From positions 450,001-482,000 of the forward strand of contig JAUWGH010000002.1 of the NCBI GenBank assembly GCA_030606485.1: 32,000 bases of DNA, read 5' to 3'. Positions 6,556 through 28,532 of this stretch are shown here, piece by piece. Numbering within the stretch: the stretch's first letter is position 1; the number at the start of each line of letters is the position of its first letter. The notes below the pieces were generated by a model. The model was not told the origin of the DNA and ran no database searches. It worked only from the letters and a program-made list of their open reading frames with translations. The translations under genes and the position numbers were made by a program. Origin of the DNA: Promethearchaeota archaeon. Its GTDB lineage: Archaea > Asgardarchaeota > Lokiarchaeia > Sigyniarchaeales > SOKP01.

Positions 6556-6564
6556 ATTTTCGAT

Positions 6565-7209
6565 GTGATTTTAATGAGATTAGTGGACAATTTGAAAGGA
6601 ATTGAATCTTACTATTTAGTAATTTCTGGTAATGGAACATTTCCAGAGAAGGTTATATTAAAAAATCTTTGTAGGAAATATAATGGACATGACAAAGCTA
6701 TATTTTATATAAGCACACCAATTAAGAAACAAACGGGATTGAATGCTCTTAATGCTATACAATTATATACTAAAAAATTTCAGATAAATTCTATAATTTT
6801 CATTGTAGATGGGGAACACATTAAGCAGAATGCTAGGATCGAGATTAAGAAGCATTTAAAATCTAAAGGAATAGGGATTAATGAAGTTATACCCCTCCAA
6901 GGAGCATTCTTAATAAAATGTAAATCAGGACCAGATGACATCATTCTATTTTGCATCACATTAGGACCAGAAGTTTTCATTGAAGAGGAAGTTGCTGAAT
7001 TGATTGAACTCAAATTGGGTGTAAAAATTGACCTCTCACGAAAAAGAGAACCCAATGGGAGAAAAACTATTAAAAATCAGATAAAACAAGTTTTAAGGGA
7101 AAAGGGGAAAACTATTGAAGAGTTAGTAAATAACACTGGAAAAACTAAACTTGAACAAACATTTCCCAACATATGTGCAGTTCTTAAAAAAATAGAAGAA
7201 GAGCAGTAA
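6565..7209 (+). CDS. Hypothetical partner of the ATPase, TOPRIM-like (DUF3226/DUF4435-type) putative nuclease; true start may be ATG 6574
   Basis: 9 bp downstream of the ATPase. Strand-loop-E helix (YLVISGNGTFPEKVIL), later IIFIVDGE (DxD/E) and a further acidic motif FIEEEV, as in TOPRIM partners of such ATPases. Confidence 0.5.
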   Translation: MILMRLVDNLKGIESYYLVISGNGTFPEKVILKNLCRKYNGHDKAIFYISTPIKKQTGLNALNAIQLYTKKFQINSIIFIVDGEHIKQNARIEIKKHLKSKGIGINEVIPLQGAFLIKCKSGPDDIILFCITLGPEVFIEEEVAELIELKLGVKIDLSRKREPNGRKTIKNQIKQVLREKGKTIEELVNNTGKTKLEQTFPNICAVLKKIEEEQ

Positions 7210-8821: not shown

Positions 8822-9904
8822 TCATTTTCCTCTTAGGATTTCTATCGTTTTATTAAAGAATCCTGAATTAAAAACTTTCAAAGTCTTTTCATTTTTTATA
8901 GCCAACAATTCTATTGGATAATAATCATTATCTCTGGAATTTCTAACTCTTTGTTTTAAAAATTTTTGTATGGCAATTGAGATAGCATATTTTGAATTAT
9001 CACATCCAATCCATTTACGATTTAACTTCTCTGCCACATGTAAAGTTGTTCCAGAACCGCAAAAAAAATCTGCAATTAAATCACCCTCATTACTCCCTAT
9101 CTGAATTAATCGCTCTAATAACATTGGATGTTTTTGAGTAGGATATCCAGTCCATTCTGAAGAAGCTGGTTGAATACATGGTATCCGCCAAACATCATCG
9201 GCTTTTTTATCATGAACAATTCTGTATTTTACATGACCATTTTCATCCTTTACATTCTTTAAGACACCATTTACCGATTCTCGCATTAATTGTTTTACAG
9301 GTTTATCTCTAAGAATGCGGAATTCATTAAAAGTATAAGATTTTCCTTTAGAATAAATTAAAATATTATCATGAGCTCTTGGAAGATTTTTCTTTCCAGC
9401 TGAATATTTATTGTAGTAATACCATATAATTTCATTAACAAATCTATCCTTTCCGAAAATTTCATCCAATATTGCTCTTATGTAATGTGAAACGTGCCAA
9501 TCTAAATGAATAATAATAAGACCATTACTTGTTAAAAGTTCTTTCATTAAAATTAAACGTTCATACATCATTTGGAGATATATGTCTAAATTCTTTCCCC
9601 AATTATCTTTATACCCAAATTCCTTAAGTATATTTCCATCCATCCGAATTTTTAAAATATAATCAGAACCCGTTGCAAAGGGAGGATCAATATAAATTAA
9701 ATTAATTTTATCTGTAAATTTTGAGAGTAAATAGAAAATTACAAGCTTATTATCCCCCCAAAAAAGTTTATTAGACCAGACATTAATCATTTCACCGGAA
9801 GAATTAATTGGTCTAATTAACTTTACTCTCTCGAAGGTTATGCTATTATCCTTTAATTCATTAACGTCTAAATCTTTTTTATTAGTCCAAGAGAGTCTAA
9901 CCAT
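8822..9904 (-). CDS. Site-specific DNA methyltransferase (N6-adenine/N4-cytosine, beta class, type III Mod-like), apparently orphan
   Basis: WGDN motif, catalytic motif IV IYIDPPF preceding SAM-binding motif I DFFCGSGTT, and YPTQKH. Confidence 0.9.
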   Translation of the reverse strand: MVRLSWTNKKDLDVNELKDNSITFERVKLIRPINSSGEMINVWSNKLFWGDNKLVIFYLLSKFTDKINLIYIDPPFATGSDYILKIRMDGNILKEFGYKDNWGKNLDIYLQMMYERLILMKELLTSNGLIIIHLDWHVSHYIRAILDEIFGKDRFVNEIIWYYYNKYSAGKKNLPRAHDNILIYSKGKSYTFNEFRILRDKPVKQLMRESVNGVLKNVKDENGHVKYRIVHDKKADDVWRIPCIQPASSEWTGYPTQKHPMLLERLIQIGSNEGDLIADFFCGSGTTLHVAEKLNRKWIGCDNSKYAISIAIQKFLKQRVRNSRDNDYYPIELLAIKNEKTLKVFNSGFFNKTIEILRGK

Positions 9905-9954
9905 TTTATTATTCCTAAATAGTAGATAATATTTTCAAAAATTTGCATTTGAAT

Positions 9955-12900
9955 CTAATAATTATAAGAGCCTTGATTTTCAGGATAAATAAACTCGAAT
10001 TTATTAGTGAGTGATTTATGATTAAGCCATTTTTTTATGTTTTTATCCCAGAGATGACAATCCAATGGATTCGGATGTTTGAATTTATCAAATAAATTAT
10101 TAACAAAAAGATCTCCTTTAACTAAATCAAAAAATAAAAGATAATGTTCTATTTTAAAATAATTGAATAATTGAGTAATAATTTTCTTAAAATGATTGAA
10201 AGCGGAATCTGGTAAATAAAATTTCAAAAATAATCCATTTTCAAATTTAATCATTTTATCTTCTTCTTTAAAATAATATTCCCCCTCTATTTCATAAATG
10301 AATCCATAATTAAGGAAATTAAAAATCTTAATAATTATTTCGATTTGTTCGCGTGTCAAATCTGGAACAATTGCATAAAATTTAAATTTAAGACCCGTAT
10401 TTTCTCTAAGTTTTATTTGGGGAAAAATTAATTTTTTATTAATCAAATCTTTAATGTTATTTAATCTGGATTTATGTCTTAATTTTATCATATCCAAAAA
10501 ATTTTGACCATTTAAATCTATGATATTTTGAAAATCTTGGTCGAATTTTCCTTTAATATTTTTTTCATCTCTTTCAGAAACATTAAAAACTTTACAATCT
10601 ATAGAAGGATCAAAATTTTTATCAAATAATATTTTTTGAACAAATATTTCAAAAGTTTGGTATCCAAAATAAAAGCCATCAGGGCTAATATTAAAATTAA
10701 AATTCAAAATTGGAATGATTTTTTTAACTGAAAATGATAAATATTCATCAATTTCTCTTTTACTTTTTAAAACCCAGTTCAAATATGAGAAATTAGGATT
10801 TTTGGAAGGAAATATATATTTAAAAAGATAAGAATTTGCACTTTCCAATGAACAAGTGTATTTTATGCTCTTGAATCCTAATGGAAATAGCATCTTCCAT
10901 TCAATTTCATTAGGAATACTTGGTTTTATGTATAAGTAAAAATTTTCTAAACCGAATTTTTGATACGAAGGAATAAGTTTAATATTTTCAATATTTTTTG
11001 AATGTTTAATAATGTTTGAAAGATCATCACTTTTTACAAGTTTTTCTTCAAGATTATTGTGTAAATCTTCAATTTCTTGAGAGATTTCTAAATTTAATGT
11101 TATTTCTTTTTTTAATTTTAGATTTTTTGAATAAGTTTCAAAAGAAATTTTTTTAACCAAATCAGTGTTAAAATTAGTGAGTTCTATACTCTCTTCCTTA
11201 TGATATGAAGATATTTTGCGATCTTTAATAAGAGAGATACTAAATTTTGATAATTCATCAAAAAAATCTTTACTATAAAAGAAATCATTATTTTCAACAT
11301 CAAAGAAATTTTCTAAGCTGAAAATTGAAATTATGTATGAATCAATAAATTGTTTAAAGAGAATGAGATCATGATTAAATAATTTGTAAATTAGACCCAA
11401 TAAATTTATTTTTTCATTGTCATTTAACTCAATACAATATAAATATAGAAAAGTGTATTTTTCCCCGGAAATTAGGTCAATGCTTCTATTTATGACTACT
11501 CTTGGAAAAATATCCTTAAGAGAATTAATCTTTTTTTCTGTTGTTACAGAATCCTTTATTAATAAAGTATAAAAAATTGGGCAGATTTTTCTGGCAGAAA
11601 TGGAAGTAATTAAAAATGGAACTGCTCCTGGAGGGTCAGATTGAACAGTTTGAGTTAATCTCGCATCAATATCTTGAAAAGTAATTTTTTTTAATCTATA
11701 CTCCTTTAGGATTTTTTGGATTTTTTGAAATTTTGTAGTATAAATATTTTCTGCTAATTCTTTTTTTGTTAAAATGGCTTCAATCACTTTTAAATTAAAT
11801 ATTTTCAGATTCTCTGATGTTTTAAGTAATTGTAAAAAGTTTTCATATTCACTCTTCTCATGCAGAAAATTAGAATTGTTCATAAAATACACTGAAAATA
11901 AGTTAAATAAATTCTTCTTGAACTGAGAGTAATTATATTCAATATTTTCATCAAACTTTGGACCGATTCCGTTTTGTTCAATGAAATCAAATAGCATAAT
12001 TTCATTTTTTAGTTCTGGGTGAGTTTTTAGAATTTTTTCTGTGAGATCTATTAATTTTAAAAAGAAAGAAATTTGTTCCTTAATATAAAAAAATCCGAAA
12101 TTTTTATTTGAATCGATTAATGTGAGGAATTTTCGTTTTAATTCCGGGTCTTCGTAAAAAATATTCAAAATCTTTTTTAAATCCTTAATAATATTTTTTT
12201 GAGTTAATAAATAACTAAATACATCACTTTTCACTTTCTGTAATTGCTTCCATTTTTCCTCAAAACTAAAACCAGTTGTTGCAAACCATCTAATCCTATT
12301 GAGGAGTATAATATCAAATAGATCCATAACCTTTTCTTCTTTAGAAGTGTATTTTAAAGAAGGAGAAAATATTAAATGTTCGTTAAAATCCTTATCTCCT
12401 CTCAGTAATAACTTTTTATTCAAAATATTTTTTTTAAAGTAATTTAGGTTTAGGAAATTTTCATGGAAAACAAATTTTAACAAAAAAAATTTCTTGATAA
12501 TTCCATAATTAATTAAGGTTTTAAAAAATTTTTTTAAATCATCAATATATTTCATAGGGATTACAAAAATTCCTGTAACTTCAACCCCAAACTTTGATTC
12601 TTGAGTTCTATTTACCCAATAAAATGGTAAATGTTGTAGAATTTTTTGTACCTTATAATTTCCAAGTTGAGGGTTAAAAAATATATAACAATAAACCATA
12701 TTACAAAAATAATACTGCCAATTAATTTGATAATTTGGGGAAATCACATTTTGAGGTAAAAAAGTCTTAAAATACCGATTAAATTTCTTTGGAGTAAAAG
12801 AGGTATTAATTTTTTGCTCTAATTTTAATTTTTTAAACATATTTTCAAAATCCGCTCTTCTCGTATAGCGTTTTGTTATTTGAAAAATACCGTATATTAA

Positions 12901-13497
12901 TGAAAAGAATTCTAATTCATCTTCATTCTCAAAATAACCTTGTATTATGTTTTGTGTCATAATATCGCGAAATAGATTATATTCCACATCGAGATTCAAA
13001 AAAAGAGATGAATGTTTATGAATGTAATCAAATAGATTTTTTAAATTTTTTATTATAAAATCGCCAAATCTAAATTTCCACCATGCATATAAAGGATCTG
13101 TTTTGAAGTAATTTTCCCATTCATTAAAATTCGGAAGTCTATTTAATAGATCTGAAACCTTTACTAACACTATCGTTTTTAACAATGAATAATTCTGTAA
13201 AGGGATTGGTATAAAAAGGTAAAATGACTCTCGTAGGAGAATAAATTTTATTATTTTCTGCATATCTGAATGGATCTGCAGAGTAATTTTTTTATTTTGT
13301 TTGGAAGTTCTTTTAACACCAAAATCAAACCTTTCATTTTCAAAATTTGCTAAGTAATCAATTTTTGAAATAAAAACTTTTTGAGGGTGAATTGATGGTT
13401 TTCTTTTTAGATATTCTTCTAATTCTTCCAAACAATAATTAAACCAATATTCTACATTGTCGGGAGAAATCGTATTTTTAATAAATTCTTCTAGCAT
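9955..13497 (-). CDS. Large hypothetical protein (1180 aa) with about four degenerate Lrp/AsnC-like wHTH-RAM modules
   Basis: Long clean ORF. Repeating pattern: ISPNYQINWQYYFCNMVYCYIFF; VPFLITSISARKICPIFYTLLIK; LIPSYQKFGLENFYLYIK; IFPQIKLRENTGLKFKFYAIV. The CDS is certain; the fold call is an inference. Confidence 0.55.
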   Translation of the reverse strand: MLEEFIKNTISPDNVEYWFNYCLEELEEYLKRKPSIHPQKVFISKIDYLANFENERFDFGVKRTSKQNKKITLQIHSDMQKIIKFILLRESFYLFIPIPLQNYSLLKTIVLVKVSDLLNRLPNFNEWENYFKTDPLYAWWKFRFGDFIIKNLKNLFDYIHKHSSLFLNLDVEYNLFRDIMTQNIIQGYFENEDELEFFSLIYGIFQITKRYTRRADFENMFKKLKLEQKINTSFTPKKFNRYFKTFLPQNVISPNYQINWQYYFCNMVYCYIFFNPQLGNYKVQKILQHLPFYWVNRTQESKFGVEVTGIFVIPMKYIDDLKKFFKTLINYGIIKKFFLLKFVFHENFLNLNYFKKNILNKKLLLRGDKDFNEHLIFSPSLKYTSKEEKVMDLFDIILLNRIRWFATTGFSFEEKWKQLQKVKSDVFSYLLTQKNIIKDLKKILNIFYEDPELKRKFLTLIDSNKNFGFFYIKEQISFFLKLIDLTEKILKTHPELKNEIMLFDFIEQNGIGPKFDENIEYNYSQFKKNLFNLFSVYFMNNSNFLHEKSEYENFLQLLKTSENLKIFNLKVIEAILTKKELAENIYTTKFQKIQKILKEYRLKKITFQDIDARLTQTVQSDPPGAVPFLITSISARKICPIFYTLLIKDSVTTEKKINSLKDIFPRVVINRSIDLISGEKYTFLYLYCIELNDNEKINLLGLIYKLFNHDLILFKQFIDSYIISIFSLENFFDVENNDFFYSKDFFDELSKFSISLIKDRKISSYHKEESIELTNFNTDLVKKISFETYSKNLKLKKEITLNLEISQEIEDLHNNLEEKLVKSDDLSNIIKHSKNIENIKLIPSYQKFGLENFYLYIKPSIPNEIEWKMLFPLGFKSIKYTCSLESANSYLFKYIFPSKNPNFSYLNWVLKSKREIDEYLSFSVKKIIPILNFNFNISPDGFYFGYQTFEIFVQKILFDKNFDPSIDCKVFNVSERDEKNIKGKFDQDFQNIIDLNGQNFLDMIKLRHKSRLNNIKDLINKKLIFPQIKLRENTGLKFKFYAIVPDLTREQIEIIIKIFNFLNYGFIYEIEGEYYFKEEDKMIKFENGLFLKFYLPDSAFNHFKKIITQLFNYFKIEHYLLFFDLVKGDLFVNNLFDKFKHPNPLDCHLWDKNIKKWLNHKSLTNKFEFIYPENQGSYNY

Positions 13498-16472: not shown

Positions 16473-19400
16473 ATGCCTGATTCGAAGCGTAAAATAAGGC
16501 GCAAATATGTTTTATCTTCAATTATAATTGTTTTCATATTGTTTTCTTGTTTTTATCAGATTAAAAACTCTTATTACTATTCCAGTGAGAATTATAGACC
16601 TATAAACACAAGTAATGGCCATGAACGGATTTTTATTGATGGAGATGCTACTGGAGTAGGTGCCCAAAATTGGACTTATGCGTTACAGCAAAATTGGTGT
16701 ACTGGATCTGGAACTTGGGATGAACCATATATTATAGAGAATAAAAGAATAGATGGTCAGGAAATAGGAAACTGTATTGAAATAAGAGATTCCATAGCTT
16801 ATTTTCAAATAAAGAATTGCACTCTCTATAATTCTAGCATAACGACGTCGGGAATACAATTAACATACGTTGATAATGGAATCATATTAAGCAATAATTG
16901 TTCTTTTAATAATGGTAATGGTATAGATATTTTTATGTGTGATAACAATACCGTAATAAATAATACTGTGAGCAATAACACACTTTCAGGCATAAATTTG
17001 ACTACCTTTAGCCACGATAACAACATTACCGGTAATCTTGTTAAAAATAATTTAAAAGATGGTATAAAAATTGGAAAAGAATTATTTTCAAACTGTAATG
17101 ACAATATCCTTTCTAATAATTCAGTGATATCAAACGATGGTAATGGTATATCGATATTAAGTGATTATAATGATCTTCTTAACAATAGCGTTTTATATAA
17201 TAAATTAAATGGTATTTTTTTGAATCAAAGCCGTTATGGAAATATATGGAAAAATAATTGTTCTTACAATTATGACTCTGGAATTTTAATTGATCGAGGT
17301 GATTATAATAATATTTCAGGTAACGAAATCAGTTATAATTACAAAGGTATTGATATTTCAGGGTTGTGGTTTTGGGAAGAATGTTTAGATAATGAGATCT
17401 CTAATAATAATATACATAATAATAGGGGAGGAGGGATTGAACAAGATTATTGTAAAAATACAATAATTTCAAATAATAACTTTACTAACAACAAATTATA
17501 TGGGGGATATAATAATAATAATACAAAGATTTATAAAAATACTTTCGAAAATAGTGGGATTTACTCACATGATAGCAATTACTCAGTTATCTATGACAAT
17601 AAAATAAACGCTAGTGATGATTATTGTATAAATATAAATCGGGCTTATTATTCCAATATAACGGGAAACACGATATATAATGGCGGCATATATTATGGAG
17701 GTATTCGCATTAATGAATGTAATTCTTCAATTCTTTCTAATAATACTTTAGACTTGAATACAAAAAAGGGAATTTATATATATTTAAGTAATCACACGAC
17801 TTTGACTCAAAACAAAATGTATAATTGTGGTATCAAATTCGAGGATTCGTTAGAAAGCGCTTCTACTTCTAATATTGATGCATCGAATACCATTAATGGT
17901 AACCCTGTGTATTTTTATTATAACAAATCCAACTTAAAACCAATTAATTTTACTGACGCAGGGCAAGTAATAGCGATTTATTGTAATGATTCGATTTTAT
18001 CTAATTTTAACATCAGTTCTATTTTAAGCGGAATTTCAATGCATTTTTGCAAAAACATCTCTATTTCAGAAGTAAATATTAGTGAAAACGATTATGGTAT
18101 TTATCTAAGCCAATGTATTAATATTACGATGAATAATATCACTCTTTCAGATAACGAATATGGAATCTACCTTCCAAACAGTAATAATACAGTCATTTCA
18201 ACGATCACATCTTTATTTAACGAGTACGGTATTATTTGTTATAGAAACCACAATATTACTATAAACGAATGTAATATTAATTATAGCGAATATGGAATTA
18301 TATCATCGGCTTGTAATAATATCAATCTTACTGGCAATACTATAGTCAATTGTGATTATGGTATTTATACAACCTCAAATCGTAATGTCACTTTATGTTC
18401 AAATAGATTATTTAACTGTGGAGTAATATTAAATGATGTTATTTCAAATTTTTTAACTTATAAAATAAATACCTCTAATAAGGTTAATAACAAACCTTTA
18501 TATTTTTATACCAATAAACTTGGACTAAAACCTTTCAATTTTTCTAATGCGGGTCAAATAATATTAGTTAATTGTAATAACTCACGTATTTCGGATGTAA
18601 AAATGTCAAATTGTTCTCGTGGTGTTTCATTACTTTCTTGTAAAAACATTTCTATTTACAATGTTACTTCAATAAATAATATAGATAGGGGTTTTTACTT
18701 AGGTGGAGGTTTTAACAACACTGTTCAAAAGTGTAATTTTTCATATAATTTAATTGGATTATATCTGGGAAATACACATAATAATACAATTTTAGAAACA
18801 AATACATCTCACAACACACAAGTGGGGATATATATTTCTGGAAGTAGAAATATCACTCTTATAGGAAATAGACTAAGTTACGACCTAGTGGGTATTAAGC
18901 TAGATAATAGTTATGATTGCAATCTTACAGATAATAATATGAAAAATTGCGGCATAGAAATTAAGGAATCTATTGACTGGGAAACTTATTCAACAAATTC
19001 TATTGATACAACAAATAAAGTAAATGGAAAAGATGTTTATTATTATTTTAATAAAACTAATCTAAATTCAAATGATTTTATTAACGCAGGTCAAGTGATC
19101 CTTGTCAAATGCAACGACTCCTTAATAAATAACTTAAATATTACAAATATTTCTAATGGAATTTATATGTATTATTGCAATAATCATATTATTTCAAATT
19201 GTCAAATTACAAATAATAATTATGGAATTTATCTATATTTTGGGAATAATTTTTTACTAACAGGAAATACCATAAATCGAAATTTTGTTGGTTTATCGTT
19301 AATCTCTAATAATAGTACAATAACTCAATGTGACTTTATAGAGAACAATCATTCCATTAGTGGAGAAGGAAGCAATAATCTAATTTATAACAATTATATT

Positions 19401-21542
19401 GACGGTAGTGCGTACCTTTGGCCTTCCAACAATTGGAATAATTCTTATGCAGGTAATTATTGGAGCAACTATAGCGGCGTTGATTCTGATAATGATGGAA
19501 TTGGTGATACCCCTTATTTAATTTATGTGACTGGAGCGCCAGAAGTCTATTATGATTATAAACCCCTTATGAATCCACCAAATATAGATACAGACGGAGA
19601 TGGATTATTAAATTCAGAAGAATATGATTTAGGAAATGATGGATATCTAACAAATGTAACCAATCCAGATTCGGATTACGATGGATTAAGTGATTATGAC
19701 GAATGGATAAATCTAGCAAATCCATGGGATAATGACACAGATAATGACAGTATGCCAGATGGATGGGAAGTTTTAAATAGTTTAAATGTTATAGATGGTA
19801 ATGATAATATAACAGACGCAGATAACGATGGAATATCAAATCTTAACGAGTTTTTTTACGGGACCAATCCTCAAATGGCGGATACAGATCTGGATGGAAT
19901 GCCAGATGGATGGGAATTAGATAATTCTTTAAATTTATTTGCAAATGATGCCATGGAAGATCCTGACCTAGATACAATACTAAATTATTACGAATACTTG
20001 AATGGAACAGATCCAAGGAACAACGATACAGAATTTGATGGGATGCCTGACGGATGGGAGATTAATAACTCATTAGACCCTTTAAATAATGACGCTATGA
20101 GCGATGCGGATAACGATCAGTTGGAAAATATTTACGAATTTTTGAACGGGACAGACCCTCATAACGACGATTCTGATGGTGATACTATACTAGATGGTAT
20201 TGAGGTTGGTTTACACACAGATCCTTTAGACGGTTTCTGGTTTCCGATGCCAAATTTGAAAATTTCAAGTTTTAGTGTAAGTGATGTTTACGAGGGTCAG
20301 GCATTTATTTTAAATTTTACGATTACTAATAATGGTATCTGGAAAGCAAATGGGATTATACTTTCGATTCGATGTGAAGCGCTGAATTTAACGCTATATG
20401 AAAATATGGCTGAGCCATTTGATTTAGAAGTTAACAAGTCAAAAAATTTCCTCATAGATTGTACCTCAATATCTACAGCTGGAATTTTTGTACTAACATT
20501 GGATCTCGATCCAGGAAATTTATTAAACGAAACCTATAGTTCTCCTGATGGTTCGTATCGTTCTGATTGGACAGAGGACAATATAAAACAAATAGAAATG
20601 CAAATTATCGAGGGGGATGGAGGTATTGCAGTAGAGATGTTTATCATTGTTGTTTCTGTAGCAGGGGTTATTATTGGTATGATAGGTCTTACAATTTTAG
20701 TAAGACCAAAAATAAAAAAAATCATATATTCAAAAAACCAACGGAACAAAGCTAAAGCAGAACTCGAAGACTTCGAGTTTAAAGTTCGAAATTTTATAAG
20801 AGAACAACTGGAAGAATTCTACGGAGCAGAATGGTGGGAAAAAGGAATACCAGAATATATTAGATTAGGTGTAGAAAATAAAATAAGAACCGAACAAATT
20901 AAAGCGCCAAAAATGAAAGTTCAAAATATTAATTATCTCGACTTCAATCATTATTTTCTAATTATTAATGAAAAAGAAAATTGGGACAATATTTTTTCAG
21001 ATGTTTTTCAAGATAAAAATAAACTCGCAGAAAATTTCGAGAATTTAAGAGTATTTAAGAACAATATTTCTCAAAATGTAGCTACTTCCCAGGAAATAGA
21101 TGCGTATCTGTTTTATATTTATGGCATAACAACCTTTTTTACTAAAGGTTTTAATGTATTTCTTAGTTATTCGACATTGGATTCAGAATATTTTCAAATC
21201 TCAGAGATCGTGTCCCGCCTTGAGACTTATCCAAAAATGGATAAGATTTTCTTTTGGGAAGCAGATAGTGGAGAAAATATTGTTGAATATATGGAAAGGA
21301 TTTTAAACATTAGCAAAGTGTTTGTTATGTTTTGTTCTGAAAACTCTATAAAATCAAAAGCGGTAGAAGATGAATGGCAAGCTGCTTTTCAATTAAGAAA
21401 AAAGGGATTGATGAAAATAGTACCCGTGTATGAAGATGACCAATTTATCCCTAAATTATTAATGCCACTTTTAAATGTGAAATTTTCTAAAGACGATTTT
21501 GATGGGTTTATCGACAAACTCTATGAAGAAATATTAAGGTAA
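16473..21542 (+). CDS. Single-pass surface receptor: signal anchor - NosD/right-handed beta-helix - DxDxDG Ca-binding repeats - CARDB - TM - Swt1-like HEPN (degenerate) - TIR domain
   Basis: Basic plus hydrophobic N-terminus; N/I/C-rich parallel beta-helix repeats; about 10 DxDxDG repeats; PNLKI...TITNNG...LDPGNLLNET (CARDB); TM about 20628-20703 followed by RPKIKK; FEFKVRNFI...WWEKGIP...YLDF (Swt1-HEPN); C-terminal NVFLSYS...FWE.DSG...VFVMFCSENSIKSKAVEDEW...IVPV (TIR, about 21150-21542). Confidence 0.9.
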   Translation: MPDSKRKIRRKYVLSSIIIVFILFSCFYQIKNSYYYSSENYRPINTSNGHERIFIDGDATGVGAQNWTYALQQNWCTGSGTWDEPYIIENKRIDGQEIGNCIEIRDSIAYFQIKNCTLYNSSITTSGIQLTYVDNGIILSNNCSFNNGNGIDIFMCDNNTVINNTVSNNTLSGINLTTFSHDNNITGNLVKNNLKDGIKIGKELFSNCNDNILSNNSVISNDGNGISILSDYNDLLNNSVLYNKLNGIFLNQSRYGNIWKNNCSYNYDSGILIDRGDYNNISGNEISYNYKGIDISGLWFWEECLDNEISNNNIHNNRGGGIEQDYCKNTIISNNNFTNNKLYGGYNNNNTKIYKNTFENSGIYSHDSNYSVIYDNKINASDDYCININRAYYSNITGNTIYNGGIYYGGIRINECNSSILSNNTLDLNTKKGIYIYLSNHTTLTQNKMYNCGIKFEDSLESASTSNIDASNTINGNPVYFYYNKSNLKPINFTDAGQVIAIYCNDSILSNFNISSILSGISMHFCKNISISEVNISENDYGIYLSQCINITMNNITLSDNEYGIYLPNSNNTVISTITSLFNEYGIICYRNHNITINECNINYSEYGIISSACNNINLTGNTIVNCDYGIYTTSNRNVTLCSNRLFNCGVILNDVISNFLTYKINTSNKVNNKPLYFYTNKLGLKPFNFSNAGQIILVNCNNSRISDVKMSNCSRGVSLLSCKNISIYNVTSINNIDRGFYLGGGFNNTVQKCNFSYNLIGLYLGNTHNNTILETNTSHNTQVGIYISGSRNITLIGNRLSYDLVGIKLDNSYDCNLTDNNMKNCGIEIKESIDWETYSTNSIDTTNKVNGKDVYYYFNKTNLNSNDFINAGQVILVKCNDSLINNLNITNISNGIYMYYCNNHIISNCQITNNNYGIYLYFGNNFLLTGNTINRNFVGLSLISNNSTITQCDFIENNHSISGEGSNNLIYNNYIDGSAYLWPSNNWNNSYAGNYWSNYSGVDSDNDGIGDTPYLIYVTGAPEVYYDYKPLMNPPNIDTDGDGLLNSEEYDLGNDGYLTNVTNPDSDYDGLSDYDEWINLANPWDNDTDNDSMPDGWEVLNSLNVIDGNDNITDADNDGISNLNEFFYGTNPQMADTDLDGMPDGWELDNSLNLFANDAMEDPDLDTILNYYEYLNGTDPRNNDTEFDGMPDGWEINNSLDPLNNDAMSDADNDQLENIYEFLNGTDPHNDDSDGDTILDGIEVGLHTDPLDGFWFPMPNLKISSFSVSDVYEGQAFILNFTITNNGIWKANGIILSIRCEALNLTLYENMAEPFDLEVNKSKNFLIDCTSISTAGIFVLTLDLDPGNLLNETYSSPDGSYRSDWTEDNIKQIEMQIIEGDGGIAVEMFIIVVSVAGVIIGMIGLTILVRPKIKKIIYSKNQRNKAKAELEDFEFKVRNFIREQLEEFYGAEWWEKGIPEYIRLGVENKIRTEQIKAPKMKVQNINYLDFNHYFLIINEKENWDNIFSDVFQDKNKLAENFENLRVFKNNISQNVATSQEIDAYLFYIYGITTFFTKGFNVFLSYSTLDSEYFQISEIVSRLETYPKMDKIFFWEADSGENIVEYMERILNISKVFVMFCSENSIKSKAVEDEWQAAFQLRKKGLMKIVPVYEDDQFIPKLLMPLLNVKFSKDDFDGFIDKLYEEILR
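17823..19150 (+). repeat. Three tandem internal beta-helix super-repeats in the receptor ectodomain
   Basis: NCG....SN.(I/V)N.K..Y(F/Y)Y.NK..L....F..AGQ.I...CN.S units start at 17823, 18414 and 18945 (aa 451, 648, 825). Confidence 0.8.
19482..20230 (+). repeat. About 10 DxDxDG acidic calcium-binding (thrombospondin type 3-like) repeats
   Basis: DSDNDG, DTDGDG, DSDYDG, DTDNDS, DADNDG, DTDLDG, DPDLDT, DTEFDG, DADNDQ, DSDGDT, several alternating with MPDGWE and GT.P motifs. Confidence 0.85.
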
Positions 21543-21700
21543 AAATTTACAGTATTCTATTACAATACTTTTTGCTTCATTGGATTTTTATTTTATCCAA
21601 AATATGTAAGATTTTTATAATAAATCGACCAATATTTTCATAAATAAATAAAGCGATTTCAATAGGATTTATATTAAGAAATCAAATGGGTATTTTACAA

Positions 21701-21960
21701 TTGGAAATTAAGAAACTGATTTAAAAATGTTAAAAAATTAATAGATTATTATGAAGATGATTGGTGGGATAATGGGATTCGTAATTTGGAAAGTAGACAG
21801 TGGTGAAAGTGTTGTTAAATTGATGAAGGAAGCTTTAACCATAAGTTATGTGTTTATACTTTTTTGTTCAGAAAATTCAAAAAAGTCTGAGGCTGTAAAA
21901 GGTGAATGACAAGCAGTTTTTGATTATGGAGGAAATGGATAATTTTCCTATTTTACTGCC
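21701..21960 (+). pseudogene. Decayed HEPN-TIR paralog, N-terminal part of TIR
   Basis: 21772-21942 reads MGFVIWKVDSGESVVKLMKEALTISYVFILFCSENSKKSEAVKGE*QAVF, against FFWEADSGENIVEYMERILNISKVFVMFCSENSIKSKAVEDEWQAAF in the intact TIR (TGA at 21907 replaces Trp). An upstream shifted frame reads DYYEDDWWDNGI, like EFYGAEWWEKGI of the HEPN. Confidence 0.85.
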
Positions 21961-21965
21961 ATTTT

Positions 21966-24482
21966 TTAAATATTCTCAAAGAATTTTAAAATTTCTTGCC
22001 CAAAAACTCTAGACATGATTTCCGCCATTCTTTTTTCATTTCTATAACTTCTAACTTGTTGAAGATTTTTAAAATCATCCATTAATTCTTCTTCACATAT
22101 TTTAGTATAATCTTCTATTTTTTTTGTTAAAGATTTTGAAGGTTTTTCAAAAAGAAAAAAGAATATTCTAAAATCTTCTGTTCTAAAAGGAGTCATCGTT
22201 ATAGCACCTCCTTCAGCGGATAGGATAGGAATCTCTCCAAATCCAATTTCACTAGCAAAACTTTGAATTGCTGATAAAAGACCAGACATTAAATCACCTG
22301 GTTGAGATATATCTGAGAAATCCTTTTCATAGATACTTGCTCCATAAATATGTTGAATTAAAAGTTTTCGAAGATTTTCGATATCAGGATCAGTAGTAAA
22401 TGGTTTTGTAAGAAACTCATGGATTTCTTCTGAAGTATTATTGATTACTTTAAATAGTCTTTTAGGTTTTTCAAGATGCTTAATGTTATTCTTTTCTAAC
22501 CAATTTTTATCATTAATCAATTCTGATGCTTCGCGTCCACTATTTTTTATAATAGCCACTTGTGCTCCAAAAGCAATTGCCATTCGATATTCAAGTGCAG
22601 CAATTTTTCCTCCATTAATTCCAATTAATTTTACATTACTATGATCTAATCCAGATTTTAAAATATCATACCAATATTGTAATGCTTCAAGAATACTAAA
22701 ATCTGTTCCTATTGTTGAGTGAATCTTTTTATAACGTTCGTCAATCTTGATATCATAAGGTAGTAGATGTGGAATGTATCCAATAGTTTTTATAGTTTCG
22801 GGATATTTTTCTTGAATATCACCAACAATTCTACAAATTCCTGATTTAGTACCTCCAGATATAATTGTTCCTTTAAAATCACAAAACCCATCAGTAAGAG
22901 TATTTTTGTAGTTTTGGAGCAGTTTTTCTAATCTTGCATCAGTCCCACCTGCTATAATTACAATGGGTTCTTTAAGATCATTTTCTTTTATTTCCATACA
23001 ATTATCCAATTTCTTTAGAGCATCACTGTACATTTTTTGATTGTATGAGAGATTTTTATTAGGATGAAACAGTATCCCTAATAATAATAAACTTCTGATT
23101 AATTCAATCCCAGGCATTTGGTTATGAATATTTTTAAGTTCATCTAAAGTATTTAGAGTTGTATCAATCATCCACATATTCTGACTATGATTTATTCCAT
23201 TTAAGTAATAAATAAGACTGTCGTCTAACTTACCAAGAAAAAACGAAAAAAGTCCCATATCAAAAAATGCCCAAGGTATCTCAACTTTAACTTCTATTTG
23301 ATTTAATCTTCTTTCAATACCTTTTTGAATCAATTCTTTATTATATTTAATATGTTTTAAATTTCCAGTTTTCTGAATTTTCATTATTAGGTAATTTAAT
23401 AAAGGATATGGATGCGAAGGATCAGCCTTTAAAGCTTTTTTGTAATATTTATATGCTTTTTCATAATCTTTAAGAATTTTATAAGATCCACCTAAGGAAG
23501 CAAAAGCATCTGAATCCATTGGATTTTTTTCAACTGCTGTTTTCAAATATGATTGCCCCTCTACATATCTTGAACTTCTTGGATTATTTTTATTTTTTTT
23601 ATATAATGCTATTCCAAGATCTCGTAAAACGGACGCTTGTTTTAAATCAGGATACTTTTTCCATTCATCTATTTTTAAAATATTTTCAATAATCACTATA
23701 GTTTTATCCCATTCATTAATTGCCATTGCTAACTTAGCGATTTTATGAGCAATATCGAAATCGTTTTTATTCGCAGAATATACTAATTCTAATTTTTTTA
23801 TCTCATCTTTAATTCTTTCATTGGACATGTAAGCTCCATAGCTAGATTCGTAATCACGCATTTTCTTTATTAGAGTATTTAAGGATATATCAGCAGTCTC
23901 TAAAAGCGCTTTTATTCGATTAAATTCTCGAATATATGGTTTAGGGATTTTAAATTCAGTTTTATAAAGACTTCCATATTTATTTACTTCCCAGCCATGT
24001 TGCAAGAAAGTACGTATTTGAATTTCTGCTTTTAAACCAAAAATTTCGTCGGGAACATGTAATTCTAATCTCTTATAGAGATCTGATTTGGGATTGAGTT
24101 CTACAATAAAATTTTTCAGTAATTCTTGAAGTTCTAATTTATCGGTTTTACTTTTTTCATTTTCTTCAATTATAATAAAATGTTTTTGCATTAACTTGCT
24201 GACAGTATTTAATTCGTCCAAATTGGGTAATATTATTTTTAATCCAATTAAATCATTCATTTCTTCAGTTACATTTGAATTATTTATATTTGAATTAAAA
24301 ATTTCATCAATAAAACCATAAATAGTCTTTGTCTTTCCCTCAATCATGAATTCAGAAGAATAACTTCCAATAATATGAGTCAGAATTTTTTCTAATATTT
24401 CACAATATTGTTCATAAAGAGGAAGTGAGTAACAGTAAGAATTTATTTGACTTTTGATAAAATTAAGCGTTTTTTCATCCAT
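21966..24482 (-). CDS. Multidomain protein: RelA/SpoT-like nucleotidyltransferase (degenerate) - TPR - SLOG - longin-like domain
   Basis: DLIGLKII and AEIQIRTFLQHGWE (RelA/SpoT); TPRs (DAFASLGGSYK...KAYKYYKKAL); IIAGGT, IISGGTKSGI...VG, TIGYIP, GINGG..AALE...A, SGR (SLOG, aa about 504-690); IQHIYGASIYEKDF...DLMSGLLSAIQSFASEI (longin-like, aa about 703-838). Confidence 0.8.
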   Translation of the reverse strand: MDEKTLNFIKSQINSYCYSLPLYEQYCEILEKILTHIIGSYSSEFMIEGKTKTIYGFIDEIFNSNINNSNVTEEMNDLIGLKIILPNLDELNTVSKLMQKHFIIIEENEKSKTDKLELQELLKNFIVELNPKSDLYKRLELHVPDEIFGLKAEIQIRTFLQHGWEVNKYGSLYKTEFKIPKPYIREFNRIKALLETADISLNTLIKKMRDYESSYGAYMSNERIKDEIKKLELVYSANKNDFDIAHKIAKLAMAINEWDKTIVIIENILKIDEWKKYPDLKQASVLRDLGIALYKKNKNNPRSSRYVEGQSYLKTAVEKNPMDSDAFASLGGSYKILKDYEKAYKYYKKALKADPSHPYPLLNYLIMKIQKTGNLKHIKYNKELIQKGIERRLNQIEVKVEIPWAFFDMGLFSFFLGKLDDSLIYYLNGINHSQNMWMIDTTLNTLDELKNIHNQMPGIELIRSLLLLGILFHPNKNLSYNQKMYSDALKKLDNCMEIKENDLKEPIVIIAGGTDARLEKLLQNYKNTLTDGFCDFKGTIISGGTKSGICRIVGDIQEKYPETIKTIGYIPHLLPYDIKIDERYKKIHSTIGTDFSILEALQYWYDILKSGLDHSNVKLIGINGGKIAALEYRMAIAFGAQVAIIKNSGREASELINDKNWLEKNNIKHLEKPKRLFKVINNTSEEIHEFLTKPFTTDPDIENLRKLLIQHIYGASIYEKDFSDISQPGDLMSGLLSAIQSFASEIGFGEIPILSAEGGAITMTPFRTEDFRIFFFLFEKPSKSLTKKIEDYTKICEEELMDDFKNLQQVRSYRNEKRMAEIMSRVFGQEILKFFENI

Positions 24483-24888
24483 AAAATTCTCATCTTTTAG
24501 AATAAAATTTTTTAAATTTTAATTGAATCTCCTTTTTAATAAATCTTTAAGATATTATAAATTTCTTACAATATAATTGAGAATGACTAATTATTAAATC
24601 TTTTCTTCAAATGAAATCATGTAAATAACGCACTCTTAAGTATATATTTATGATATCCAAATAATACATGTTTATGTTCTTTTTCTCCACATTTTTTCAG
24701 AAACTCGTAAACACGTTTAAGTTATGTTGAAAATATAAATAGCAAGAAATTTGATATCTTAAATATTTTATAATTTCAGAAAGGAAATAAATTCTTAATC
24801 AACTCTTTTTTGGCAGAAATTTTTAAATGCCTACAATAAGTTGTAAATCCAATTTTTTTAGTGATTAAAAAGGATAAGAAGACCGAAA

Positions 24889-24915
24889 TAAAAAAAAATT
24901 AAAAAAAAAAGTAAA
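24889..24915 (-). terminator. Oligo-U tract, possible archaeal intrinsic terminator
   Basis: Minus strand reads ...ACTTTTTTTTTTTAATTTTTTTTATTT about 55 nt after the TIR-remnant stop (24968) and about 215 nt after the GTPase stop; weak evidence in an AT-rich genome. Confidence 0.3.
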
Positions 24916-24967
24916 AGTTAAAAGCTCGAACTTTCAAGTCACCGTTTTAGTAAATTTCTTTAGCATT

Positions 24968-25060
24968 CTACCATAGAAATTCCTTATAGAGTTTCTTAAT
25001 AAACCAATCGAAATCATCTATAGTAAACTCAACATTTAAAAGCGGCCAGAAAAAAAACTC
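24968..25060 (-). pseudogene. Decayed TIR paralog, C-terminal end
   Basis: Minus strand reads EFFFWPLLNVEFTIDDFDWFIKKLYKEFLW* (TAG at 24968-24970), against MPLLNVKFSKDDFDGFIDKLYEEILR* at the end of the intact TIR; no start codon and an upstream in-frame stop. Confidence 0.85.
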
Positions 25061-25129
25061 TTAGAACTAAAGAATGAATAAATGTTATTATTGATTGCAA
25101 TACGGTTGTTTTTATTATTATGGTTATTA

Positions 25130-25690
25130 TTATTGTGAGATTGAACGAGACTTATTAAATTTATTATATAACTCTTTAATAATTGCATGGAATCCTTGGG
25201 AAACTCGAGTCCCTGTTAATGCTGATGTTCTGTAATATCCAAGAAAGTTTCGCTTTTTTACTATTTTCAGAACCTTATTATCGTTTAAATTTTTCTCATC
25301 AACTAAATCAACTTTATTGCCAAATAATACGGTAGGTATATTGCCACAATAATTTTTAATATTATCATGCCAATTCGTAATATGTTTAAAACTTTCTTGA
25401 CCAAGATCATTTTCTTCAAGAGAATATACGATAATAGCAGCTTTACTCTCTTTATAGAAAGAGGGGCGTAAAAAATTAAAATCATCTTGTCCGGCTATAT
25501 CCCAAAATAAAAGTTTGAAATAATTGCCATCTATTTCCTCTTCATAGCTAAAAAATTGCGCTCCTATGGTTTTAATATATTCCTTTTGAAACCTACCTTT
25601 TGTAAATTTAGTAATTAATGATGTTTTTCCTACTGCTCCGTCTCCTACAACTGATATTTTAAATGTAAATTTATCGCCGCCTTTATTCAT
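25130..25690 (-). CDS. Rab-like small GTPase (Ras superfamily; eukaryotic signature protein)
   Basis: G1 GDGAVGKTS, G2 YIKTIG, G3 WDIAGQ, G4 NKVD, G5 TSAL; no C-terminal Cys prenylation motif. Confidence 0.92.
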   Translation of the reverse strand: MNKGGDKFTFKISVVGDGAVGKTSLITKFTKGRFQKEYIKTIGAQFFSYEEEIDGNYFKLLFWDIAGQDDFNFLRPSFYKESKAAIIVYSLEENDLGQESFKHITNWHDNIKNYCGNIPTVLFGNKVDLVDEKNLNDNKVLKIVKKRNFLGYYRTSALTGTRVSQGFHAIIKELYNKFNKSRSISQ

Positions 25691-26865: not shown

Positions 26866-27663
26866 TTGAAAATAATGAGTTATGAAGATATAATTTATGA
26901 AAAAAAAGAGGGTGTTGCTCGTATAACTATCAATCGGCCTCAGCGTTATAACGCGTGCACACAGCACACCGTTCATGAATTGATCGACGCTTTCAATCGG
27001 TGCATGGACAATGAAATTGGCGTCGTGGTATTCACCGGTGCCGGGGACAAGGCGTTTTGTACCGGTGGAGATCAAACAACCCGCGAGAAGGGCGGATACA
27101 AGGGAGAGTATATATTACCGTTAGAAGTAGGCTGGCAACGCGTGACGCATTTGATCCGCACCCTACCCAAACCGGTCATCGCTCGAGTGAACGGGTACGC
27201 GATCGGGGGAGGTCATGTATGGCACGTTAATTGTGATCTCAGCATTGCAGCAGAGCATGCGCAGCTTGGGCAAGCAGGTCCTCGCGTAGGTTCTTTTGAT
27301 CCAGGATATGGAACTGGTGACTTAATGCGTGCCGTAGGCATGAAACGTGCCAAAGAAATTTGGTTTCTATGTCGCCGATATACTGCGCAACAAGCATTGG
27401 AAATGGGACTTGTGAACGCTGTTGTACCCTATGAAAAATTGGATGAGGAAGTGGATAAATGGTGTCAAGAACTGTTAGAAAAGAGCCCAACGGCGCTGAA
27501 AATGCTGAAATATGCTTTCCTGGCCGAGACTGATGGAGTAACAGGCATCACACAGTTAGGAGTTGGGGGACTGGGTCTTTATTATGGCACCGAGGAGGCT
27601 GTGGAAGGAAAGAATGCATTTTTAGAAAAACGTAAACCTGATTTTAATAAATTCAGAAAATAG
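26866..27663 (+). CDS. Crotonase-family enzyme, MenB (naphthoate synthase) / BadI (2-ketocyclohexanecarboxyl-CoA hydrolase) subfamily; true start may be the downstream ATG (MSYEDI)
   Basis: ITINRP..YNA, AFCTGGDQ, NGYAIGGGHV, GPRVGSFDPGYG, AKEIWFLCRRY, AFLEKRKPDF. Confidence 0.85.
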   Translation: MKIMSYEDIIYEKKEGVARITINRPQRYNACTQHTVHELIDAFNRCMDNEIGVVVFTGAGDKAFCTGGDQTTREKGGYKGEYILPLEVGWQRVTHLIRTLPKPVIARVNGYAIGGGHVWHVNCDLSIAAEHAQLGQAGPRVGSFDPGYGTGDLMRAVGMKRAKEIWFLCRRYTAQQALEMGLVNAVVPYEKLDEEVDKWCQELLEKSPTALKMLKYAFLAETDGVTGITQLGVGGLGLYYGTEEAVEGKNAFLEKRKPDFNKFRK

Positions 27664-28532
27664 TGAGGATTATGGATATTAAAAAAATTTGTGTAATTGG
27701 AGCAGGTATTATGGGTCATGGGATTGCTCAATTAGCTGCAACTCATGGGTATGATGTAAACCTTGTAGATGTAGATGATGAAGTTTTAAATAAAGCCAAA
27801 GCCTCTATTGAAAAGAGTCTTAACAGATTTTTTGTAGCAAAAGATAAGATTACTACTGAAGAGGCTGAAAAAATTCTTGATAGGATTAGTTTAAATGTTA
27901 ATAGGGATGAAGCTATTAAAGACGTACAAATGGTAATTGAGGCTGTGTTTGAAGACATGAATTTAAAGCAACAATTATTCTCTGAGCTGGATGCAATATG
28001 CGATAAAGATGTAATTCTTTCGTCTAATACCTCTTCATTAAGTATAACAGATATTGCCTTAAAATCTAAAAATCAAGAAAGGATCATAGGAATTCATTTC
28101 TTCAATCCGGCTCCAGTTATGAGATTAATAGAATTGATAAAAGGGAAGAATACATCTGACGAAGTCTTAGAAACGTCAAAAAAGTTCTCTGAGAGCTTAG
28201 ATAAAACTGTAGTAATTGTAAATGATGCTCCTGGCTTCGTAACAACTCGGCTTATTTATGTATTATGTAATGAAGCTGCAAACATGAAAATGGAAGGAAT
28301 CGCCAGCATAGAAGATATTGATATTGCTTGTAAATTGGCATTCAATTTTCCCATGGGTCCTTTAGAACTCAGTGATCTCGTAGGGAACGATATTTATTTG
28401 CATATTGGAGAATATTTAGAAAAGGAACTTGGAGATAAATATAAACCGTGCCCTCTTCTAAAAGAAATGGTCGAAAATAATTTATTGGGAAGAAAATCAA
28501 AAAAAGGGTTTTATAATTATAATAAACCATAA
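27663..28532 (+). CDS. 3-hydroxyacyl-CoA dehydrogenase (3-hydroxybutyryl-CoA dehydrogenase-like); likely start ATG 27672
   Basis: GAGIMGHGIA Rossmann motif, IEAVFE, SNTSSL, IHFFNPAP, PGFV, PMGP; GAGG-like SD element just before ATG 27672. Confidence 0.92.
   Translation: MRIMDIKKICVIGAGIMGHGIAQLAATHGYDVNLVDVDDEVLNKAKASIEKSLNRFFVAKDKITTEEAEKILDRISLNVNRDEAIKDVQMVIEAVFEDMNLKQQLFSELDAICDKDVILSSNTSSLSITDIALKSKNQERIIGIHFFNPAPVMRLIELIKGKNTSDEVLETSKKFSESLDKTVVIVNDAPGFVTTRLIYVLCNEAANMKMEGIASIEDIDIACKLAFNFPMGPLELSDLVGNDIYLHIGEYLEKELGDKYKPCPLLKEMVENNLLGRKSKKGFYNYNKP

Follow-up and report, generated by a model that had tools for sequence, protein, structure and literature searches.

A RelA/SpoT-like–TPR–SLOG protein with a longin-fold C-terminus and a conserved TIR neighbour in Promethearchaeota

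The window analysed here is a stretch of 32,000 nucleotides from a Promethearchaeota archaeon (GenBank assembly GCA_030606485.1, contig JAUWGH010000002.1, positions 450,001 to 482,000), and all coordinates below are those of the window unless another sequence is named. Positions 21966–24482 of its reverse strand carry an open reading frame (ORF) that stays open across 838 codons and codes for a RelA/SpoT-like domain, a TPR region, a SLOG domain of the LSDAT type and a longin-fold domain. The start codon is supported by the alignment of Met1 with Met1 in ~35 full-length homologues. The product is predicted to be soluble, with no predicted transmembrane (TM) segment and a maximal 19-residue hydropathy of 1.49. 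Near-identical copies, including an 838-residue protein with 99% identity, occur in several independent cold-seep and marine-sediment studies; none of the sequencing runs listed as containing this DNA is an RNA run. An earlier note, made from the sequence of this stretch, had proposed that the four domains are fused in one ORF; we confirmed all four, three of them with Pfam and the longin with a fold model, and the domain boundaries given there are correct within ~15 residues. The neighbour with which this gene converges, across a 423-bp gap, codes for a receptor-like protein with a C-terminal TIR domain (16473–21542, forward strand).

Residues 1–210 (23853–24482, reverse strand, as for the three other domains) correspond to a RelA/SpoT-like nucleotidyltransferase (NTase) fold whose active site is partly eroded, according to Pfam, a family profile and a motif alignment. 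Pfam RelA_SpoT (PF04607) matches residues 51–168 (E 1.3e-9, 38.8 bits versus a cut-off of 27), and the family profile matches the small alarmone synthetases RelQ and RelP in the PDB with E-values of 1e-16 to 1e-19 over residues ~35–215. The following TPR/helical region (residues 211–495; 22998–23852) was delimited with Pfam and a profile. It contains TPR_2, TPR_1 and TPR_8 matches at residues ~325–357, with TPR_2 itself at 326–357. The match of residues 271–367 to TPR-S (PF20308), the sensor TPR of NTP-dependent conflict systems, lies just below threshold (27.2 bits versus a cut-off of 27.6), and precomputed family assignments place TPR-S on a few homologues. A scan of the protein against NCBIfam gave nothing near the cut-offs, and PADLOC returned no named system, the NTase region only being a partial match to the candidate model PDC-S33.

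The SLOG domain (residues 496–690; 22413–22997) was recognized by Pfam as LSDAT_prok (PF18171; E 4.9e-7, 29.7 bits versus a cut-off of 25.4), a family also precomputed on most homologues. A PDB sequence search with a SLOG profile reached TRPM2 only at E 0.75–1.8, and the corresponding search with the C-terminal tail gave chance-level matches only; fold searches were thus needed for both domains. The AlphaFold2 model of residues 490–695, built from a 41-sequence alignment, has a mean predicted local distance difference test (pLDDT) score of 94.5 and shows a Rossmannoid SLOG fold with glycine-rich loops. The best Foldseek matches were the MHR1/2 regions of TRPM8, TRPM2, TRPM4 and TRPM3 (E ~1e-6). 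VIA, an exhaustive structural scan, gave Z-scores of 18.5 for the LOG-like TM1055, 15.9 and 15.5 for TRPM2, 13.7 for DprA and 11.1 for the SLOG domain of ThsA with 3'cADPR. The middle domain is thus a SLOG domain of the TRPM MHR1/2 type, as the earlier note had supposed. Its residues G512, G543–G544, G548, G624–G625, G639 and E631 are invariant or near-invariant, and the glycine-rich loops are kept family-wide.

The C-terminal domain (residues 691–838; 21969–22412) was assigned by AlphaFold2, Foldseek and VIA. Pfam searches with the C-terminal 154 residues of the window protein and those of 18 homologues gave nothing significant, the best being Sedlin_N at E 0.1 in 2 of the 19. A model built from the 19 homologous tails (residues ~691–838; pLDDT 85, predicted template modelling score 0.81) has the DSSP order bb-a-bbb-a-a, with strands at model residues 20–27 and 32–37, a helix at 45–62, strands at 69–72, 75–81 and 87–93, and helices at 99–121 and 132–150. 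Foldseek ranked the TRAPP subunit Bet5/TRAPPC1 first (E 1.7e-5). In the VIA scan TRAPPC1 (Z 11.3), Bet5 (11.1), AP2 mu (10.8) and VAMP7 (10.1) matched, model residues 17–147 being aligned; the N-domains of AP mu and sigma subunits, synbindin, sedlin and the VAMP7 longin scored between 10 and 10.8, and SRX also matched. Roadblock was considered as an alternative assignment and rejected: roadblock domains have the order a-b-b-a-b-b-b, and roadblock and MglB structures reached Z-scores of 8–9.8 and covered only residues ~15–120. The topology and the coverage of the C-terminal helices therefore identify the last ~150 residues as a longin, in agreement with the initial proposal. The same bb-a-bbb-a-a order is found in the longins of TRAPP (Bet5/TRAPPC1, sedlin, synbindin), of the AP/COPI sigma, mu, zeta and delta subunits, of VAMP7 and Mon1-Ccz1, and in an Asgard longin/roadblock-longin structure (PDB 8YQG). 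Known longins resemble the window domain with Z-scores of 10–11.3 over ~120 residues, but the window protein itself has no significant match to a Pfam longin family, and its longin forms the C-terminus of a prokaryote-type nucleotide-signalling protein.

Related longin folds are abundant in Promethearchaeota and include longin-GTPase fusions; in the Atlas, a 376-member Promethearchaeota cluster combines the same fold with Arf, Ras or Roc domains. The longin-tail profile finds nine further proteins in the genome of the window. One is a 294-residue longin-Ras fusion recognized by Pfam as Longin (E 1.7e-5) and Fuz_longin_1, and its hhalign comparison with the window longin, the sole link at the sequence level, is weak (E 9.7e-5, probability 58%). 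The eight others have no Pfam domain; three of this subfamily are giants of 1318–1553 residues devoid of Pfam domains, and a 1318-residue protein is followed after 60 bp by the gene of a 190-residue GTPase. Longin-subfamily proteins next to small GTPase genes, the three giants among them, are found in this genome at C10:640296-644878, C10:903686-910616 and C10:877919-880265.

To place the protein in its family, 1.84 billion cluster representatives were scanned in full with HMMER. The three-domain core was found in 572 clusters at E<1e-30, with alignments that usually stop near query residue 665–690, where the SLOG domain ends. Among 197 pooled relatives, 45 have a longin tail, 95 have another tail of ~170 residues and 48 end after the SLOG domain; 94 of the 95 other tails contain a RyR domain (PF02026) according to Pfam. 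In species-representative genomes the core occurs in Chloroflexota, Planctomycetota, Verrucomicrobiota, Bacteroidota, Actinomycetota, Acidobacteriota, Nitrospirota, KSB1 and other bacteria, and in a few archaea (Bathyarchaeia, Thermoplasmata, Methanomicrobiales, Hodarchaeota and Promethearchaeota). This overwhelmingly bacterial distribution bears out the earlier description of the core as bacterial-type. All longin-tailed proteins that bear organism names are labelled as Lokiarchaeota or Promethearchaeota.

We then built a maximum-likelihood tree of 89 core regions, which is unrooted, comes from a quick search and carries a flag for compositional bias. All 16 longin-tailed sequences group together in a single clade (SH-aLRT 100), with one state change. 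Nearest to this clade is a Promethearchaeota protein, followed by one from Isosphaerales; neither has a longin, and both have intact motifs. There is thus a single replacement of RyR by a longin, in the Lokiarchaeial branch. The earlier idea that a bacterial-type conflict sensor had acquired an Asgard longin therefore holds as far as the longin is confined to one Lokiarchaeota/Promethearchaeota clade; it does not hold for a stand-alone sensor, as a TIR partner adjoins. Similarly, the predicted swapping of C-terminal effectors did occur, with RyR as the usual tail, but its range is narrow: RyR, no tail or a longin.

The state of the synthetase site was read from an alignment of the N-terminal 260 residues of these 89 sequences, using 18 positions in four synthetase motifs of RelA/SpoT homologues. 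The 73 non-longin sequences show no or almost no variation at 16 core positions (R, K, S, K; D, G, R; G, Y, S, H; E, Q, R, T, H), with at least 84% at each tabulated position. The R, K, S and K of the ATP-phosphate motif R-x-K-x3-S-x3-K are present in 97–100% of them; all 73 have the G and Y of the acceptor motif G-Y-x-S-x-H, and nearly all have its S and H. In the window protein the ATP-phosphate motif has become K-x-K-x3-G-x3-E, with R to K, S to G and K to E substitutions, and the acceptor motif has lost its GY by deletion, with S replaced by L and H by N. The metal-binding/catalytic motif D-x-x-G-x-R reads D-x-x-G-x-K, retaining D77 and G80 with R to K at position 82. The motif E-I-Q-I-R-T-x3-H is intact (E153, Q155, R157, T158 and H162), and K52 is also kept. 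With the acceptor motif and several ATP-site residues lost from positions that are invariant or near-invariant in the 73 relatives, the domain should not be taken for an active nucleotidyltransferase. The synthetase site of the window protein is eroded and probably inactive, judging from these lost motifs.

Motif erosion is a property of the longin clade. G-Y-x-S-x-H is lost in 12 of its 16 sequences, the Tyr being retained only in L001, L003, L090 and L097, and K52, the first K of the motifs, and D77 are invariant throughout. L001, the closest relative of the window protein, has Lys in place of the catalytic-type Glu of E-x-Q, and L091 has lost most motif positions. Of the core domains, the NTase has the highest mean pairwise identity outside the longin clade (41.9%, versus 40.6% for SLOG and 32.2% for TPR) and the lowest within it (33%, versus 44–46% for the others), and in a set of 35 longin-clade sequences its identity is 48.5% versus 57–60%. 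Deep-branching longin forms still have intact synthetase motifs; the gain of the longin and the loss of RyR therefore came first, and the erosion of the enzyme followed.

The first bacterial loci that we examined had TIR, NUDIX and RyR genes around the core gene. Pfam TIR_2 searches in 40 genomes gave 0–15 matches each, many of them inside core-gene loci, and 17 were translated without a stop. We counted the neighbours within 5 kb with hidden Markov models (HMMs) built from locus seeds; these counts are lower bounds, as TIR domains of the DUF4062 type are missed. Among 76 full-length non-longin loci, 33 have a TIR ORF, 32 a NUDIX gene, usually abutting the start of the core gene, and 34 a separate RyR protein. 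Taken together, 64 of the 76 loci have one or more of these three neighbours, as do 42 of the 46 loci that are flanked by 5 kb on each side. In the longin clade, a TIR ORF was found at 12 of 26 loci (9 of the 13 with adequate flanks), and no NUDIX gene or separate RyR protein lies within 5 kb at any of the 26. In nine of the 12 the TIR ORF is directly upstream on the same strand, at a distance of 127–682 bp, and the neighbouring TIR domains match that of the window partner with E-values of 1e-50 to 1e-90. As the genome of the window contains only three TIR ORFs in 3.75 Mb, this adjacency is not due to chance, and the TIR gene is a conserved neighbour of the SLOG-bearing gene. DUF4062 (TIR-like) genes may take the place of TIR_2 beside some core genes, namely a DUF4062-LRR gene in an Asgard locus (L003, 8782–12360) and a DUF4062-NACHT gene in a Victivallales locus (L006, 1–2334).

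Pfam, homologues and TM prediction together describe the window partner. The 1689-residue protein has a signal anchor at residues 12–31, an ectodomain of ~1350 residues of the beta-helix/NosD type, a TM helix at 1382–1414 and the TIR domain at 1562–1683; a match to HEPN_Swt1 at 1436–1526 is weak and below threshold (22.8 bits versus a cut-off of 27.5). Full-length homologues are present in loci L094, L104 and L108. Pfam confirmed TIR_2 in the partners of the longin clade, whose ectodomains are NosD/beta-helix, SBP_bac_5 plus beta-helix, ArnB_C or leucine-rich repeats (LRR), and all partner TIR domains keep the catalytic-type Glu in a motif that reads ...AVEDEWQ.... Paralogues in which the ectodomain is swapped to SBP_bac_5 plus beta-helix or to LRR occur in L094, L104 and L092.

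Remains of a second, decayed TIR copy flank the 838-codon ORF. Relic A (21787–21939, forward strand) is its middle part, 53% identical to partner residues 1595–1645 (tblastn, E 2e-13); the codon after that of the conserved Glu is TGA where the partner has Trp. Relic B (24945–25046, reverse strand), its 3' end in a now inverted position, was identified by tblastn and as an inverted repeat: 24974–25036 matches the last 21 TIR residues (E 3e-4), and the relic and the 3' end of the intact TIR gene (21464–21565) make up a 102-nt inverted repeat of 73% complementarity. Relic B lies 491 bp upstream of the start of the ORF, and the spacing between TIR and core genes is 479–525 bp in five relatives. 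The simplest account is an inversion of ~3.1 kb (roughly 21940–25040) that flipped the gene together with its upstream region, with one breakpoint in the decayed TIR copy. The right-hand junction is spanned by contigs of independent studies (X6 21936–25489, X2 24926–25318 and X13 24398–25104). Near 21920 three other assemblies diverge into different sequence; contigs from other cold-seep and sediment metagenomes (X10 and X13) that carry the 3' end of the gene do so exactly at 21920, and one X6 contig joins 21401 to 21920; the strains therefore differ structurally at the left inversion junction. Within 21696–21939, a weak HEPN-like stub ahead of Relic A gives a tblastn match that is at chance level by itself (E 0.075).

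The closest known relatives are the bacterial RelA/SpoT-TPR-SLOG(LSDAT_prok)-RyR proteins, whose first ~690 residues are 25–40% identical to the window protein over their full length, with the same domain order and a TIR gene nearby. In contrast with that family, the window protein has a longin for RyR, eroded motifs, and neither a NUDIX neighbour nor a separate RyR protein. The TIR domain is C-terminal on a membrane receptor-like protein in the window system and N-terminal on TPR/NACHT proteins in the bacterial family. RelQ and RelP (PDB 5DEC, 6FGK, 6EWZ, 2BE3 and 3L9D) share the E-x-Q-x-R-T and D-x-x-G motifs with the window protein, but the latter is devoid of G-Y-x-S-x-H and of parts of R-x-K-x3-S-x3-K and is ~630 residues longer. 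Our literature search, whose coverage did not extend to the paper defining LSDAT, found no paper on the RelA/SpoT-SLOG-RyR family or on its longin variant. New here are the findings that the longin replacement had a single origin, that RyR and NUDIX were lost, that the TIR partner is receptor-like and that the synthetase site has decayed.

The MHR1/2 region of TRPM2, a eukaryotic LSDAT SLOG with an ADP-ribose (ADPR) site, is the best family-specific structural match of the window SLOG over ~190 residues, and LSDAT_prok is the prokaryotic counterpart of that domain. The window protein differs from TRPM2 in having no channel and no NUDT9H, and ligand binding by its SLOG is a prediction. ADPR is bound by TRPM2 MHR1/2 (PMC13143021, citing Huang 2018). 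The SLOG domain of ThsA is the receptor for 3'cADPR made by a TIR protein (10.64898/2025.12.03.692087), and RyR-domain proteins bind or cleave 2'/3'cADPR (10.64898/2026.05.28.727677). Type I Thoeris, which combines the TIR protein ThsB with the SIR2-SLOG protein ThsA, likewise pairs a TIR gene with a protein that couples a SLOG to another module. Unlike ThsA, the window protein has a SLOG of the TRPM/LSDAT type rather than a ThsA/YpsA-like one, coupled to a RelA/SpoT-like domain, TPR and longin rather than to SIR2, and an antiviral role of the window system is hypothetical. The main text of a preprint on Thoeris types V–XI names no RelA, alarmone, RyR or Nudix effector.

The reading that we prefer, and would trust about half-way, is that the window protein is the cytoplasmic sensor half of a two-gene, Thoeris-like TIR-to-SLOG module in which the output has shifted away from making nucleotides and towards the longin. 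It is the best-supported one because of the literature on the ThsA SLOG, TRPM2 and RyR and because of the gene neighbourhoods. A stimulus would act on the membrane receptor-like partner, with its variable ectodomain, single TM helix and C-terminal TIR domain, which would then turn NAD+ into an ADPR-type signal; the TRPM2-like SLOG of the window protein would bind this signal. In the bacterial parent family the signal would switch on an intact RelA/SpoT-type synthetase, and the ADPR-type ligand would be dealt with by the C-terminal RyR domain and a NUDIX partner. In the Lokiarchaeial branch a longin replaced RyR once, NUDIX was lost, and the acceptor site of the synthetase then decayed; the output would there be a ligand-dependent protein–protein interaction or assembly through TPR and longin. 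We infer all four links of this chain, namely that the TIR makes the ligand, the SLOG binds it, the enzyme is inactive and the longin carries the output. Most plausibly, the SLOG domain is the input for a nucleotide made by the TIR domain, and decay of the enzyme domain would fit an output through the longin. An output by interaction through TPR and longin appears more likely than alarmone synthesis, because the enzyme is relaxing while SLOG, TPR and longin stay constrained.

Several points weigh against this interpretation. The family is known from sequences and models, so that the biochemistry of every member is predicted, and any partner of the longin domain would be hypothetical. The six residues D77, E153, Q155, R157, T158 and H162 are present, and nucleotidyl or pyrophosphoryl chemistry with another acceptor would be possible. 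At roughly half of the longin-clade loci no TIR ORF was seen, although many of these contigs are short and the HMM misses DUF4062-type TIR domains. In the window itself, the ORF and the gene of its partner converge and are not co-transcribed, and the nearest TIR copy is a pseudogene. Finally, the direction from bacteria to archaea is taken from the distribution, as the tree has no root, was made with a quick search and is biased by composition.

The retained motifs are also the basis of an alternative that we regard as unlikely but worth keeping in mind, in which the signal would still activate the protein as a nucleotide synthetase or toxSAS-like effector, as is presumed for its bacterial relatives, with a changed acceptor and with the longin only as a dimerization or regulatory appendage. 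RelA_SpoT scores above its Pfam cut-off, the six residues named above and K52 are kept, with D77 and K52 unchanged across the longin clade, and the deep-branching L003 and L097 retain the acceptor-motif Tyr. However, the Tyr/His acceptor motif is deleted in the window protein, the ATP motif has substitutions at three basic or Ser residues, L001 has a charge-reversed Glu position and L091 is without most motifs, and the NTase is the fastest-evolving domain of the clade; the equivalent of the acceptor Tyr is the residue that is mutated to inactivate RelQ-type and toxSAS enzymes. Decay might also extend to the whole module, which after the inversion and the loss of a TIR copy would be heading to pseudogenization without a current function. 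The broken TIR copy next to the gene, with its in-frame TGA and two separated pieces, the eroded synthetase motifs and the different structure of other strains at 21920 fit such a remnant, but we find it very unlikely: the 838-codon frame is intact, SLOG, TPR and longin retain the invariant residues of the clade, and a full-length intact TIR partner still adjoins. In addition, the erosion is common to most of the clade; it is thus old and has been tolerated while selection continued to act on the other parts of the protein. Near-identical copies also recur in the independent sediment studies.

A further set of possibilities concerns the gene of a Rab/Ras-like small GTPase of 186 residues with intact G1, G3 and G4 motifs (25130–25690, reverse strand), 647 bp upstream of the ORF on the same strand. 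It could be the last member of a three-part chain from the TIR receptor through the SLOG-longin protein to the GTPase, with the longin as a platform for guanine nucleotide exchange or GTPase activation, or as a GTPase effector. Four of the ten longin-subfamily proteins of the genome have a small GTPase within 1.5 kb, versus 3.9% of ORFs of at least 200 residues; one of the ten is the Pfam-positive longin-GTPase fusion, and the 376-member cluster described above associates the same fold with GTPase domains. In solved complexes that resemble the model, such as TRAPP-Ypt1, Mon1-Ccz1-Rab7 and MglB-MglA, small GTPases are bound by longin and roadblock domains. On the other hand, a small GTPase lies within 5 kb at none of the 25 other longin-clade loci, the genome has 41 small GTPases and 2.7% of its genes have one within 700 bp by chance, and before the inferred inversion the ORF and the GTPase gene would have been convergent and not co-transcribed. 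A complex prediction for the longin domain and the neighbouring GTPase scored 0.18, for a mark of 0.32, and weighs neither for nor against binding. We therefore hold the three-part chain to be improbable and the membership of this Rab-like GTPase in the system to be doubtful. There is a similarly slim chance for the wider proposal that a Toll-like TIR receptor makes a NAD-derived signal that the SLOG reads and the longin relays to a small GTPase or to a longin/roadblock platform instead of an enzyme.

If this wider proposal is true, the mechanism would directly link nucleotide immunity or signalling of the bacterial type with the eukaryote-like toolkit for trafficking and regulation. TIR-to-SLOG signalling, as in Thoeris and TRPM2-like ADPR sensing, is an active field, and the Lokiarchaeial branch offers a natural experiment, in which RyR and NUDIX were dropped, a longin was added once, the active site relaxed, and SLOG and TPR stayed constrained. 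This would provide a dated order of events from a nucleotide-signalling effector to an adaptor. The window protein is also a concrete, testable candidate for studies of the binding partners of Asgard longin domains. Of separate interest are the receptor-like TIR partners, whose solute-binding, beta-helix or LRR ectodomains give them Toll-like architectures in archaea.

Elsewhere in the window, an ATPase of the AAA_15/AAA_21 (AbiEii) type is followed by a 214-residue protein devoid of Pfam domains (5596–7209, forward strand), and an N6_N4 DNA methylase is encoded beside an 1180-residue protein also devoid of them (8822–13497, reverse strand). These two regions look like a defence-island neighbourhood. 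At 27001–28000, where enoyl-CoA hydratase/3-hydroxyacyl-CoA dehydrogenase genes are located, the GC content is 0.43 versus ~0.27 in the rest of the window, a jump that may reflect foreign origin or strong codon constraint.

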